A stretch of 64,000 nucleotides of DNA from contig JBDQPD010000004.1 of assembly GCA_040260805.1 (NCBI GenBank), positions 6,219 to 70,218 on the forward strand, read 5' to 3'. The translations under genes were made by a program, and so were the position numbers. The DNA comes from Myxococcota bacterium (GTDB taxonomy: Bacteria > Myxococcota > UBA4151). The notes beneath the pieces were generated by a model that worked only from the letters and a program-made list of their open reading frames with translations, was not told the origin of the DNA and ran no database searches. Shown one piece after another: positions 42,690 through 48,817 of the stretch; position 1 is the stretch's first letter; each line of letters starts with the position of its first letter.

Positions 42690-42727
42690 GTAAAAACAAC
42701 AAAGCCCGAGCAGCTGCCCGGGCTTTG
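42690..42727 (-). terminator. Rho-independent terminator after Gly-rich gene (end of 8-gene minus-strand operon)
   Basis: AAAGCCCGAG-CAGCTG-CCCGGGCTTT hairpin; on minus-strand RNA followed by UUGUUGUUUUUA. Confidence 0.5.
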
Positions 42728-42749
42728 CAATGCACCCTAAAGGGTTTGA

Positions 42750-43850
42750 TCAGCGGATGTTGCGGATCGAGGTCATGCTCATGTCGTGCATGGTCTTCAG
42801 GATGTTCGAGATCAGATCGTGCATCTCTTTGCGCTTGTTCATCGCCTGCTGAATCTTGAAGTTCAACACGCTCTTCGAGTGGTCTTTGTCACCGCCAGCT
42901 TTGCCGCCGCCCATGACGCCTTGGCCGACTGCGCCGCCGATGCCTTGTCCGAGCTTAGCGCCCAAAGGACCACCGATCATGCCACCAAGGATACCACCGC
43001 CTGCTTGGAAGAGCTTCGAACCGACGCTCTTGAACATGTTCTTGATGCCGCCAAAGAGGCCGCCCTTCTTCTTCTTCTTACCCAAAGCTTCGTACTTCTT
43101 CATCAAGCCTTCGAGTTCTTTGTCCGCTTCACGCATTTGGGTGAAGAGGAACGCTGCGAGGCGATCTTCGATCGAGCCGCCGGCACCGACGAGGGCGCTC
43201 ATGTCACTTTGACCCGAGCCCTGTTGGCCCATGATGCTGTTGCCGATCTTCTGACCCGCTTTCTCGACGAGGCTCGCCAAGTTCTGGTCCATGCGAGCGA
43301 GCGATCCGAACAAGGTTCCAGCCATGGGGTTCATGGCTGCCATGCCAGCGCCCATGCCGAAGCCGAGATGCGGCGGGACAGCGCCCATCTGGTTCTTGAC
43401 CACGGTGATGCGACCGTCAGCGCGACCGTCAAGGACGATGCGACCACCGATCATACCTTCCATGCGATTGCGGAACGCCGGGTTGCGCATAATGGCACGC
43501 TCAAGCGAACGAGCAGCGCGGCGGCTACGACCCATTTTGAGGTCACGGACCTCTGTGCGGGTGGTGCCGAAGGGATTGCTGTAGGTGTTGCTGTGCAGTA
43601 ACCGGCTGCGACCAAGCCCGCGGCGGGGGCTCTGCATGCTGAACGGTTTGGGCAGCTTGCCAATCATGGCGTCAAAGCCTTGCGTCGGAAGACCCGAGAA
43701 AGCGTCCTGCATGTTGCGGAAGTAGCCCGCCAGGTTGCCCGTCATCAGGTCGACGTTAGCGCCTTGAAGATCACCCACCATGTCAGGGTAGCCCAGGCTA
43801 TCCAGCATACGGTTCAGATTGGTACCGAGGGAGTTGGCTCCAATGACCAT
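42750..43850 (-). CDS. Gly/Met-rich, Cys-free secreted-type protein (harpin/translocator-like); C-terminal helix resembles T3SS needle-protein C-termini
   Basis: 366 aa, no Cys, Gly-zipper-like hydrophobic stretches (GGGILGGMIGGPLGAKLGQGIGGAVGQGVMGGG), K-rich patch, C-terminus ...LISNILKTMHDMSMTSIRNIR (cf. PrgI/MxiH ...DAAIIQNFR). Immediately downstream of TPR chaperone-like gene. Confidence 0.6.
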   Translation of the reverse strand: MVIGANSLGTNLNRMLDSLGYPDMVGDLQGANVDLMTGNLAGYFRNMQDAFSGLPTQGFDAMIGKLPKPFSMQSPRRGLGRSRLLHSNTYSNPFGTTRTEVRDLKMGRSRRAARSLERAIMRNPAFRNRMEGMIGGRIVLDGRADGRITVVKNQMGAVPPHLGFGMGAGMAAMNPMAGTLFGSLARMDQNLASLVEKAGQKIGNSIMGQQGSGQSDMSALVGAGGSIEDRLAAFLFTQMREADKELEGLMKKYEALGKKKKKGGLFGGIKNMFKSVGSKLFQAGGGILGGMIGGPLGAKLGQGIGGAVGQGVMGGGKAGGDKDHSKSVLNFKIQQAMNKRKEMHDLISNILKTMHDMSMTSIRNIR

Positions 43851-43915
43851 TGTGTTCTCCTATCATCGGGCATTTCACGCCCAGGGTTTGGTTTGTTCAC
43901 AAGCTGTATCGGTTG

Positions 43916-44359
43916 TTATGCTTGTGGGGTTGCGGCCTCAGCTAATATTTTTTTCAAGAAAAGAGCAGCGTGCTGGCCACCAGCTCCTTCTGCTTGGTCG
44001 CATGCGATGCGCAAGTCCGTACCTGCGCCCTGCCCATCGCCCAGCTGCAGCCGCAGGCGCGCACGAGCGACGCGCAGGCGAGCATCACCAGGAGATACCT
44101 TTAGAGCATCGTCTAAATACGACAACGCCTCTTGATGTGCGCCACGCTCGGTCAGCATCAGCCCCAGCAAACGAAGAACCTGGGCGTTGCTCGGGTCCAG
44201 AGCCCTGAGCCCACGCAACATCACCATCGCTTCATCGCTTCGACCGTTCTCATGCAAAGCCAGCGCATCGTGACACAAAGCAGCAAGCGCTGCCGGGCTA
44301 TGCCCACGCAGTTCAGCCAGGGTGCTGCGGCCCTCGATCAGGTCTCTCGCTGCGCTCAT
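43916..44359 (-). CDS. TPR protein, LcrH/SycD-like class II T3SS chaperone candidate
   Basis: 147 aa, three TPR-like repeats, size and position (upstream of putative substrate) as in lcrH-yopBD. Confidence 0.5.
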   Translation of the reverse strand: MSAARDLIEGRSTLAELRGHSPAALAALCHDALALHENGRSDEAMVMLRGLRALDPSNAQVLRLLGLMLTERGAHQEALSYLDDALKVSPGDARLRVARARLRLQLGDGQGAGTDLRIACDQAEGAGGQHAALFLKKILAEAATPQA

Positions 44360-46730: not shown

Positions 46731-47414
46731 CTAATCGTTGTTGCTTTGCTTGACCGGTCGAAAGGGATGCAAGAACGCAGCAAGGTTTGGACCCCGCCGG
46801 GTCTGAGCATATAATCTCCCCTGCCCCCGAAACTCGCAGACCAACGCTTCGCCCGAGAAGAACAAACCCTTCATCCCACCAAAGGCGCGCACATTATAAT
46901 CTAAGCCTGGCGAAAAACCGACCACATGATCGTTGTCACAGGTGAACACACCGTTCACGTCCACAGGATGCAGCGCGCCATAACTGTTGAACCAGAAGGT
47001 CCCTGGACCGACCATCTTGACCAAGAACATACCCGGACCGAAGAACCCTTTAAATCCACCAAACTTGGTGTCGAGGGTGACCGATGAATCCGAGGCAAGG
47101 TACGCCCCGCTTTGCAGGTAAAACTCCTCGCCAGCGGCTAAGGTCATCGACTCGATATCCCCCTCTGGTGACGCAGCGATGTAAATCTCTTGCCCTGGAG
47201 CGGTCGAGGTGAAGGTGTTTTGAAAGATCGATTCGCCGCCAAGCAGTTTGCGCTTCGCTGCGGCTAAGATACCGCCGCGCATTGACGTCTTCATCTGAAG
47301 CTCAGTCGAGCGGCTCACCATGGCGCCGCTCTCACATAAAATCGTCTCGCCAGGCGTCTCAAAGGTCACCTTCAAGATCCCAAAATCCGGCCGTTGCAGC
47401 ATCTCAGTTTGCAT
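46731..47414 (-). CDS. AIM24/DUF124 (TIGR00266) family protein, paralog 3
   Basis: Conserved GAMV, GESIFQNTF, GGFKGFFGPG, NSYGALHPVDVNG... pattern shared with two upstream paralogs. Confidence 0.8.
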   Translation of the reverse strand: MQTEMLQRPDFGILKVTFETPGETILCESGAMVSRSTELQMKTSMRGGILAAAKRKLLGGESIFQNTFTSTAPGQEIYIAASPEGDIESMTLAAGEEFYLQSGAYLASDSSVTLDTKFGGFKGFFGPGMFLVKMVGPGTFWFNSYGALHPVDVNGVFTCDNDHVVGFSPGLDYNVRAFGGMKGLFFSGEALVCEFRGQGRLYAQTRRGPNLAAFLHPFRPVKQSNND

Positions 47415-47416
47415 GA

Positions 47417-48106
47417 CTAGCCCTCCCTTGGCGGCAGCTTAGTGCCCACCATACTTCCGTACTCACTCGGGTTGCGCGTTTGCAGATAAAGTTTCCCTTT
47501 GCCGCTCACGTGCAAAACAATGCCCTCCCCACTGAAGAAGGCCTGCAGCCAAGAGCCGCCCGGTTTGGTCGTGCGGTAGTTGATCCCCGACGTGAAGGCG
47601 ACCAGATGCCCCGTATCCACGATCATGTCCCCGTCGAGCTCGACCACCTCCATGCCGCCAAACGCTGACATCGCAACCTGCCCCTGACCGGCACACTTCA
47701 AGAAGAAGAAGCTCTCGCCGGAGAAGAAGGCTTTGAAGCCCTGCCACTGGGTATCTAGATCAATGCTCGAGTCACTGGCGACGTAACTGGTGCTTTGAAT
47801 CATCAGCTCTTCACCCGGGACCAATTCATGGACCGCCATATCACCGCACAAGCTGGCGGCCAGGGTGACCTCGCCACCGGCACCCGTTCCCGTGAATTTA
47901 TTGGTGAAGAAGGACTCGCCGGTCAAAAAGCTGCGCTTGAGCGACTTGAGCAGACCACCTTTGCCGCCCGCACGAGCCGCAGTCGATGCCTGCACCTGGT
48001 CATTCATCGTGACCATAGCTCCGGCCTCTGCGGTGATCGATTCACCAACCCCTAGACGCACCACACCGAGCGAGTGCGCAGGGCGATATTTCACTTCGAT
48101 TTCCAT
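47417..48106 (-). CDS. AIM24/DUF124 family protein, paralog 2
   Basis: EAGAMVTM, GESFFTNKF, GFKAFFSGESFFFLKCAGQG motifs. Confidence 0.8.
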   Translation of the reverse strand: MEIEVKYRPAHSLGVVRLGVGESITAEAGAMVTMNDQVQASTAARAGGKGGLLKSLKRSFLTGESFFTNKFTGTGAGGEVTLAASLCGDMAVHELVPGEELMIQSTSYVASDSSIDLDTQWQGFKAFFSGESFFFLKCAGQGQVAMSAFGGMEVVELDGDMIVDTGHLVAFTSGINYRTTKPGGSWLQAFFSGEGIVLHVSGKGKLYLQTRNPSEYGSMVGTKLPPREG

Positions 48107-48118
48107 CGACTGTTCTCC

Positions 48119-48817
48119 CTACATCGGCAGCATCGGTGAGACCCAACCCACCAATGCGCTCACGTTGCGACTCTGCATATAGATCGTGCCCTGACCTCGG
48201 AACTCCATGACCAGGCCCTCGCCGCTCCCCAAGAAGCCGAGCATACCGCCGCCAGGCGTCTTGATCTTAAAATTCAGGTCAGCGTCGAAGGCGACAATAT
48301 GCCCTGTATCGACAATATAGCTGCCATTGCATTGCACCTTGATGATGCCGCCGTAGCTGTTGATGAACAGCTCGCCATTACCGCTACACTCCAAAAAGAA
48401 GAGCCCTTCGCCGCCGAACAAACCCCGCAAGCCGCCCCAGCGAAGTTTCGTGTCGATGTCACCGGTGCTCGCTAAATACGCTCCGGTTTGGATAATGATC
48501 GGCGGCGTAGCGGGCGTCATCGTGATCTGACTGATGTCACCCGAGAGCGCCGGTGCGAGGACCACCTCACCGCCACTTTGACCGCCAAAACGGTTCACGA
48601 AGAACGTCTCGCCACCGATGAATTTTCGTACCAACGCGACGAAGAACGCCATGAATTTACGAGCGATGCCGCCGCGCCCCGAATTAAGGCGAGTACTCAT
48701 CGGCAAACCGGGCGTCATGGTCACCATAGCGCCGGCTTCCGCTTGAATCACCTCACCCGGATCCAACTGGACTTTAAGCCAAGCAAAGCTCGGCTGATGG
48801 TCAATCTGCACTTGCAT
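48119..48817 (-). CDS. AIM24/DUF124 family protein, paralog 1
   Basis: EAGAMVTM, GGETFFVNRF, GGLRGLFGGEGLFFLECSGNG motifs. Confidence 0.8.
   Translation of the reverse strand: MQVQIDHQPSFAWLKVQLDPGEVIQAEAGAMVTMTPGLPMSTRLNSGRGGIARKFMAFFVALVRKFIGGETFFVNRFGGQSGGEVVLAPALSGDISQITMTPATPPIIIQTGAYLASTGDIDTKLRWGGLRGLFGGEGLFFLECSGNGELFINSYGGIIKVQCNGSYIVDTGHIVAFDADLNFKIKTPGGGMLGFLGSGEGLVMEFRGQGTIYMQSRNVSALVGWVSPMLPM

Follow-up and report, generated by a model that had tools for sequence, protein, structure and literature searches.

Do proteins of the AIM24 family work together with type III secretion system (T3SS) parts, or do their genes only lie side by side? This question is raised by a row of eight genes in a 64,000-nucleotide stretch of the Myxococcota bacterium contig JBDQPD010000004.1 (assembly GCA_040260805.1, positions 6,219 to 70,218), hereafter the window. 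The row encodes three AIM24 paralogues, a metallo-β-lactamase (MBL)-fold hydrolase, the export switch protein SctU, an acidic protein (X), a small tetratricopeptide repeat (TPR) protein, and a glycine-rich protein (Y). A first-pass annotation, made from the sequence alone, had described it as one operon coupling AIM24 proteins to T3SS-type export parts. We conclude that the operon very probably consists of two independently conserved modules that have become adjacent in one uncultured marine Myxococcota lineage, and that the AIM24/T3SS link is a lineage-specific juxtaposition. Module A comprises the AIM24 triplet and a divergent M48 peptidase gene, and module B comprises the MBL hydrolase (as its first member in the window lineage), SctU, X, the TPR protein and Y. 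We further hypothesize, with modest confidence, that module B is an outlying locus of the myxobacterial "needle-less" T3SS (T3SS*), contributing a switch protein with its partner X, a PcrH-like chaperone, and a needle/translocator-like substrate.

The arrangement itself was confirmed as the annotation had described it. All eight open reading frames (ORFs) lie on the minus strand, and the intergenic distances from the first to the eighth gene are 12, 2, 6, 3, –4, –4 and 65 nt, so that only the spacer before Y exceeds 12 nt. The hairpin terminator with its T-run starts 21 nt past the Y stop codon, the M48 peptidase gene is divergent from the unit, and the family assignments of the three AIM24 proteins, the MBL hydrolase, SctU and the TPR protein were all found correct in hidden Markov model (HMM) searches (Table 1). 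In comparison with two related loci (L012 and L007), purifying selection was observed on all eight genes, with ratios of nonsynonymous to synonymous substitution (dN/dS) of 0.03–0.15 (0.13–0.25 for Y), although dS is near saturation in these comparisons. Because the order recurs in at least five related assemblies and the dN/dS values of the eight genes are low, the arrangement is real and not a chance pattern of ORFs. The gap between the third AIM24 gene and the MBL gene is only 6 nt, so read-through transcription is likely, and the eight genes are probably co-transcribed in the window lineage.

Table 1. Features of the eight-gene unit and of the divergent peptidase gene, in window coordinates.
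Feature	Position	Strand	Remarks
AIM24_1 (AIM24 paralogue 1, module A)	48119-48817	-	PF01987 201 bits, TIGR00266 214 bits; ortholog of the first gene of the triplet
AIM24_2 (AIM24 paralogue 2, module A)	47417-48106	-	PF01987 196 bits; second position of the triplet
AIM24_3 (AIM24 paralogue 3, module A)	46731-47414	-	PF01987 188 bits; third position of the triplet
MBL-fold hydrolase	45861-46724	-	PF00753; opens module B in the window lineage and the sister clade
SctU/FlhB-family export switch protein, stand-alone	44781-45857	-	GTG start; PF01312, TIGR01404
X, 142-aa acidic protein	44356-44784	-	Without family; conserved 3' partner of stand-alone SctU
Small TPR protein, 147 aa, PcrH/LcrH-like (class II T3SS chaperone)	43916-44359	-	PcrH profile match
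Y, 366-aa Gly-rich protein	42750-43850	-	SctF-like C-terminal helix
Intrinsic terminator	42699-42728	-	13-bp stem (8 GC pairs), 4-nt loop, TGTTTTT tail
M48 peptidase (module A)	48870-49736	+	PF01435, E 2e-28; divergent from the AIM24 triplet

The distribution of the genes among relatives separates the two modules. The complete order with the divergent M48 gene was found in L007/L008 (SctU 82% identical), in the sister species represented by L012 and L110–L112 (SctU 91% identical, contigs of up to 3.73 Mb), in L030 (~99% identity, the same organism, with a contig that stops inside the TPR gene and leaves Y uncovered), and in L031 (~80% identity, with a contig that stops inside sctU). The same operon is carried by ERZ28548055 contig_33390 (3.73 Mb) and ERZ28548088 contig_27921 (2.49 Mb). 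In L005, L014 and L006, where SctU is 63–68% identical, the order MBL-SctU-X-TPR-Y is present without AIM24, and this locus occupies the same chromosomal position, with MatE, Band7 and NfeD genes downstream. In the more distant metagenome-assembled genomes (MAGs) L011/L019 and L016, the order is SctU-X-TPR-Y without MBL or AIM24, and in L010, L029 and the P0091 contig SctU-X was observed. Two long-read, pilon-polished relatives (L006 and L111) have SctU, AIM24 and MBL genes that are split in places; given that the sister contigs L110 and L112 are intact, the splits most likely reflect frameshift errors and not pseudogenes.

Conversely, when metagenomes were scanned with the three AIM24 paralogues, 80 loci were retrieved, and the complete triplet in the orthologous A1-A2-A3 order was found in 20 unrelated ones (44–62% identity). 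Relatives of MBL, SctU, X, the TPR protein or Y were present in none of these 20 loci, at least 12 of which offer at least 2.5 kb of downstream sequence. Since the triplet occurs without module B in 20 loci and module B occurs without AIM24 in sister clades, the coupling claimed by the annotation is not upheld, and the combination is seen only in the immediate clade of the window. A single eight-gene system, in which the AIM24 proteins and the MBL hydrolase cooperate with the export parts, would account for the tight spacing of genes 1–7 before one terminator, for the retention of the full order under purifying selection in several related species or populations, and for the 6-nt spacing between AIM24_3 and MBL, which leaves no room for a separate intergenic promoter of module B. 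However, no locus outside the immediate clade combines the modules, and we regard such a system as quite improbable. The 6-nt spacing is itself conserved across the clade of the window, and this counts against complete independence, as it leaves room for a lineage-specific functional link.

Module A has its own consistent composition. The three AIM24 proteins are full-length members of the family (PF01987 188–201 bits, E 1e-55 to 1e-59; TIGR00266 182–214 bits against a cutoff of 96.6), and dN/dS of the first paralogue is 0.03–0.09. A homologue of the window M48 peptidase (33–41% identity) lies divergent and directly upstream of the triplet in 10 unrelated loci, so that the peptidase gene and the ordered triplet make up a divergent cassette of four genes that is conserved in unrelated metagenomes (loci L032–L048). 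Judged from its gene neighbourhoods, module A is a widespread cassette without a link to secretion. The ordered triplet and the divergent peptidase gene set it apart within the TIGR00266/AIM24 (DUF124) family, and this arrangement appears not to have been described before; the literature searched also contained no paper on the function of bacterial AIM24 proteins. As a low-confidence guess, the three paralogues might form a hetero-oligomeric assembly that serves proteostasis of the envelope or membrane together with a membrane-associated M48 protease.

In the window lineage, module B opens with a gene for an MBL-fold protein (PF00753, 51.6 bits against a cutoff of 22.7) with an HFHFDH metal motif at residue 109. 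Its best NCBIfam match is the YtnP lactonase model, at 156 bits against a cutoff of 425, and it falls outside every named lactonase equivalog. The MBL gene adjoins sctU in L005, L014 and L006, but not in relatives of ~50% identity.

SctU is the best-defined protein of the module. The description of a full-length protein with the KKINPIEGAK sequence and an NPEH variant of the cleavage motif held in every point: PF01312 matches over the whole model (385 bits, positions 1–335 of 335), four hydrophobic segments are present at residues 29–57, 82–117, 141–163 and 173–210, and NPEH is located at residue 267. With 369 bits, the SctU model TIGR01404 exceeds its cutoff (358), whereas the flagellar FlhB model TIGR00328 stops short of its own (343.7 bits against 349.25). 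Across 120 SctU relatives, the NPxH motif keeps its N, P and H without exception, with A, T, E, D, S or V at the third position. An exact look-up of the window SctU gave no match, probably due to a differing called start.

The absence of sctR, sctS, sctT and sctV beside sctU, noted in the first-pass annotation, also held, as no other T3SS component was found in the window by a Pfam scan of coding ORFs of at least 150 aa, a scan in which short genes such as sctS were unscreened. This separation is not peculiar to the window. SctU relatives at 47–52% identity were inspected on five independent long contigs, namely L010 (1.3 Mb), L011/L019, L016, L029 (331 kb) and the P0091 contig (235 kb), and in all five SctU lies outside an sctRST operon and is followed by an X homologue of ~158 aa. 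In L011/L019 and L016, SctU-X is followed by a small TPR gene, a Y homologue, further unannotated genes, and a second TPR gene. As far as gene order can tell, the stand-alone SctU is thus the rule across the whole related clade. The distant loci (L019:3915-6210 and 10063-14034; L010, L016 and L029) also share two divergent unannotated upstream genes (~360 aa and 285–376 aa) and a downstream set consisting of a 350–386-aa protein, a protein with a CxxCxxCC domain, another TPR protein, and a 377–437-aa protein; except for the CxxCxxCC-domain and TPR proteins, these neighbours have no Pfam match. T3SS core genes were absent both beside solo copies of Y and beside the conserved neighbours (c16, c17, c18 and c26) of the distant SctU loci, where the large ORFs encode a T2SSE ATPase, a beta-propeller protein, SLT and SpoIID proteins, kinases and similar proteins.

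A sctU gene on its own could be a decaying or repurposed orphan, that is, a relic of a lost flagellum or T3SS, with no export apparatus left to join. Such a relic would fit the lack of sctRSTV genes in the 64 kb, the non-canonical NPEH motif, and the best matches among solved structures, which are to flagellar FlhB (196 bits) over SpaS (122 bits). On the other hand, dN/dS of SctU is only 0.03–0.06, the protein is complete with its four transmembrane (TM) segments, the N, P and H of the motif do not vary among the 120 relatives, the SctU-X synteny is conserved down to 47% identity, and only the SctU equivalog model is passed. In FliPQR-FlhB structures, the TM domain of FlhB wraps the FliPQR/SctRST core; therefore, selection on SctU implies a partner. 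We consider decay or repurposing very improbable, and its flagellar version was rejected on the NCBIfam cutoffs, the PcrH-like chaperone, and the purifying selection.

The start of X overlaps the stop of sctU by 4 nt, and X follows SctU in every stand-alone locus seen. With an isoelectric point (pI) of 4.9, X has no match in Pfam, NCBIfam, the PDB (profile search), PADLOC or PHROGs, and the 147 members of its family are all labelled hypothetical. The AlphaFold2 (AF2) model of X shows a disordered N-terminus (residues 1–54) and only two helices, both C-terminal.

The TPR protein consists entirely of TPR repeats. The first-pass annotation had likened it to a chaperone encoded directly upstream of its substrate, and the chaperone likeness was borne out by a profile of its family, which matches PcrH, the class II translocator chaperone of Pseudomonas (2xcb_A), with an E-value of 6.5e-15 (query residues 13–144, target residues 6–139); the single sequence matches at 6e-4. 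Repeat proteins predominate in the PDB match lists, and PcrH is the only natural PDB protein in them matched in one near full-length stretch. We therefore describe it as a putative T3SS TPR-type chaperone that falls outside every curated subfamily. The TPR gene pairs with Y-like genes in both gene orders and also independently of SctU. In classical myxobacteria, at a Myxococcaceae locus (L028) and on the P0404 contig, the Y-like gene comes first and a homologous small TPR gene second, beside ruvX-mltG. The Y-like protein of L028 (8891-10575) has the same C-terminal motif as Y with a different N-terminus, and so has that of the P0404 contig; in L028 an M48 peptidase gene also lies convergent right after the pair.

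Y is a basic protein (pI 10.4) with 16% Gly. As had been noted at first, it is Cys-free and ends in TSIRNIR. A conserved N-terminal motif is followed by a small alpha/beta domain, a helix (helix A), a glycine zipper, and an SctF-like C-terminal helix. In the AF2 model the alpha/beta domain at residues ~100–155 is better modelled, helix A covers residues 227–257, a disordered Gly-rich stretch covers residues 259–321, and a 42-residue terminal helix covers residues 323–364. Y has no significant match in Pfam, NCBIfam, PADLOC or PHROGs, and when its model was compared with the PDB by Foldseek, nothing reached E ≤ 0.001. A word-indexed search found 61 relatives, and an exhaustive HMMER search extended the family to 1,198 representative clusters at E ≤ 1e-3 (425 at E ≤ 1e-10), with "hypothetical protein" as the only name returned when the distant relatives were looked up by cluster. 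The distant members retain only the C-terminal module, i.e., helix A with the motif ...LS[IL]EDKL..FM...., the Gly/Ala-rich hydrophobic glycine zipper, and the terminal helix with the motif ...LSN[VIL][LM]K[SA].HD..M.A[IV].N[IL]R. The Gly-rich segment of Y itself is glycine-zipper-like, and the segment seems more hydrophobic in the distant members when the sequences are read without a computed hydropathy.

The resemblance of this terminus to SctF needle C-termini, suggested in the first-pass annotation, was recovered by several routes. The needle family PF09392 (T3SS_needle_F) is the top Pfam match in 10 of 18 C-termini of the Y family, and one homologue (P0162) carries a precomputed PF09392 match. 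Two different Y profiles place the needle fragment 7y6c_F and YscF among their leading PDB matches. Moreover, an hhalign comparison of the Y C-terminus with seven needle proteins gave a score of 26.0 (P 4.4e-5) over 43 columns reaching both C-termini; of the seven sequences, that of PrgI was verified as exact. Column-shuffled controls scored 8.9 on average (standard deviation 2.2, maximum 20.1), and none of the 400 reached 26.

A short form of Y (~270 aa), which is 57–62% identical to residues 178–366 of the window Y and lacks the central domain, was found on contigs listed as viral in IMG/VR (L113–L120; 35–236 kb, 41–49% GC), including the 236-kb IMGVR_UViG_3300009108_000751. These contigs contain phage-type genes for an intein-split DnaE, thymidine kinase, dCMP deaminase, NUMOD3, amidase, M23 peptidase, and deoxyribonucleotidase; in cultured phages, tblastn with short Y found nothing. 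The gene after short Y encodes a 160-aa protein that shares a homologous C-terminus with Y (hhalign 95.8%, P 8e-9); the next one encodes a 133–135-aa protein with a weak full-length match to SctI and a precomputed PF09392 match. The cluster is compact (e.g., L116:10001-12238), with short Y, the 160-aa protein, the 133-aa SctI/SctF-like protein, and a 156-aa protein, and it is interrupted by a DUF7487 gene in some contigs. Read by gene content, this neighbourhood adds evidence of association between Y and putative needle/rod-type proteins.

Several observations weigh against assigning module B to a T3SS. Neither the window nor the 8–10 kb around any of the ~10 related loci showed a further T3SS core gene, and for that reason the presence of the T3SS* in these genomes is an assumption. 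The TPR protein is below the NCBIfam cutoffs for SctY (NF052415, 39 bits against 70) and LcrH_SycD (TIGR02552, 36.4 bits against 104.8). Among the Y family the best PF09392 score is 16 bits against a gathering threshold of 29.4, the needle matches in the PDB reach only E 0.16–0.4, and the hhalign probability is only 69%. At 366 aa, and with a Gly-rich segment of ~65 residues between its two C-terminal helices, Y is not the ~80-aa (70–90 aa) helix-turn-helix protein that SctF is, and it lacks a classical TM helix (the 19-residue Kyte-Doolittle maximum is 1.07). Its AF2 model is poor, with a predicted local distance difference test (pLDDT) value of 54.5. Y-like genes are multi-copy, with at least seven loci in one MAG, and most copies are solo, many of them far from TPR or SctU genes. 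Finally, the short homologues on phage-like contigs allow a reading outside the T3SS.

In such a reading, members of the Y family would not be T3SS substrates at all. Their C-terminal module would be membrane-active or phage-derived, as in a toxin, a bacteriocin-like protein, or a virion or ejection protein; the adjacency to SctU would be secondary, and the needle likeness would reflect convergent helix chemistry. This is supported by the phage-type surroundings of short Y, by weak PHROG matches to tape-measure proteins, by the match of the glycine-zipper part to SlyB and CHCHD proteins, by the subthreshold level of every needle match, and by the many solo paralogues beside SpoIID, SLT or unrelated genes. 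However, the needle alignment scores far above the shuffled controls and runs exactly to both C-termini, Y recurs beside the PcrH-like TPR gene in two gene orders and beside SctU in four lineages, and the neighbours of short Y on the viral contigs are themselves SctF/SctI-like. We therefore consider it unlikely that Y stands outside the T3SS. As for the surroundings of solo paralogues, those at L015:8072-9754, L020:1-645, L024:6801-8990 and L023:7714-9795 adjoin cell-wall enzymes (SpoIID-like in two MAGs, SLT transglycosylase), and one solo paralogue adjoins a cNMP-binding T2SSE/MshEN ATPase.

The reading of module B as an outlying T3SS* locus can be compared with what has been reported for the phylum. 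The T3SS* is conserved in Myxococcota and was reported without needle and translocon, and its effectors are not known (PMC10433427, PMC12075869, PMC3459982). In M. xanthus the cluster MXAN_2434-2464 encodes SctD, J, I, Q, R, S, T, U, V, N and L as well as LcrH homologues, and the system is required for prey lysis, while its substrates are not known (PMC10433427, PMC12075869). The basal "Myxo" non-flagellar T3SS (NF-T3SS) is without secretin, SctF, tip protein or translocon (PMC3459982). In the bradymonabacterium YN101, large distances separate sctV (at 0.85 Mb), sctRSTU (at 3.53 Mb) and sctN (at 5.99 Mb) (PMC11509652, supplementary file 6), and dispersed T3SS* genes therefore have a precedent in the phylum. 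The window locus thus resembles the T3SS* of M. xanthus and Bradymonadia in belonging to the same phylum, in its LcrH-type TPR chaperone, in the possibility of scattered genes, and in an SctU that lies between the flagellar and injectisome types, as expected of the basal "Myxo" NF-T3SS. It differs in that their sctU is contiguous with sctRST, whereas the SctU of the window clade stands alone with X, and in that no needle, translocon or effector has been assigned there, whereas the window locus carries the candidate Y.

Among scattered loci in other groups, sctU of Chlamydia lies beside sctV. Chlamydial and other scattered NF-T3SS loci likewise have core genes dispersed over several places together with chaperone and substrate genes (PMC3459982). 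The literature searched contained nothing on a stand-alone SctU in myxobacteria, and it described neither a single sctU with a dedicated small partner such as X nor a sctU that lies apart from sctRST in association with X, a chaperone and a needle-like protein.

The TPR-Y pair resembles the lcrH/pcrH-yopBD/popBD arrangement, in which a chaperone of ~145 aa with three TPRs is encoded directly upstream of a putative substrate. The full-length PcrH match supports the likeness, and so do the conserved N-terminal motif, the central hydrophobic/Gly-rich segment, and the C-terminal amphipathic helix of the substrate. It differs in the low LcrH_SycD score (36 bits against 105) and in the lack of a classical TM helix or of YopB/YopD similarity in Y, and there is one substrate gene rather than two. 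As for SctF needles, the C-terminal helices of PrgI, MxiH, YscF, EscF and SsaG can be aligned end-to-end with the final ~45 residues of Y, but Y has extra domains and a Gly-rich loop of ~60 residues in place of the PxxP turn, and PF09392 stays below its cutoff. A TPR-type protein encoded alongside a small helical partner is also found in YscE/YscG (PscE/PscG) and YscX/YscY, which act, like SctF, at the stage of early substrates and the SctU switch. X has no detectable similarity to YscE or YscX, however, and with the TPR protein below the SctY cutoff, only the general shape of X is compatible.

On this basis, we put forward the following mechanism for module B as part of the T3SS*, with the modest confidence stated at the outset. 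The four TM helices of SctU would insert around an SctRST core encoded elsewhere in the genome, and its cytoplasmic domain, cleaved at NPEH, would set the substrate specificity. The PcrH-like TPR protein would keep Y in the cytoplasm, possibly together with the acidic X in the manner of YscX/YscY or YscE/YscG. Y would then be exported, and outside the cytoplasm its SctF-like C-terminal helix could drive needle-type helical packing or docking, while its glycine zipper could mediate membrane insertion. Thus, with a needle-type helix and a membrane-inserting zipper in one protein, Y is proposed as a needle/translocator hybrid. A bolder extension is speculative and, in our estimate, fairly unlikely: the Y family, whose members are often accompanied by a PcrH-like TPR chaperone, would be the "missing" needle/translocon-type component of the T3SS*, exported and polymerising or inserting in prey membranes, SctU and X would be its dedicated export switch, and Y and SctF/SctI-like genes would have been acquired together by jumbo-phage-like elements to exploit or modify the apparatus.

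The surroundings of the operon in the window include a Na+-NQR operon and genes for Band7/NfeD, MatE, RmuC, and large MopE/SRCR and DUF4215 repeat proteins. The operon is flanked by two very large Cys-rich repeat proteins (39671-42418 and 49816-52278), one with MopE metal-binding repeats and two SRCR domains, the other with DUF4215 repeats and a PPC domain, and both genes have long spurious ORFs antisense. On the minus strand at 14061-18652, a row of genes encodes a type III polyketide synthase, an ICMT-family methyltransferase, an AMP-binding enzyme, and a FAD-dependent oxidoreductase, which may be comparable to srsABC-type phenolic-lipid clusters. For the large ORFs at 10410-12719, 19859-22612, 22609-24165 and 24124-27324 (769, 917, 518 and 1066 aa), Pfam gave nothing at E ≤ 0.001, and Rfam and tRNA scans of the window were empty. 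A defence-system reading of the locus was considered and rejected, as PADLOC gave no match.

The separation of the two modules removes the coupling of AIM24 to secretion as a false lead, and the cassette of one M48 peptidase and three AIM24 genes is a natural unit in which bacterial AIM24 proteins can be studied. The occurrence of Y homologues and needle/rod-like genes on jumbo-phage-like contigs was unexpected. The locus bears on how the T3SS* of predatory Myxococcota delivers anything to prey: it links a T3SS switch protein with a PcrH-like chaperone and with a large needle-tailed protein family, and so offers concrete candidates for export.

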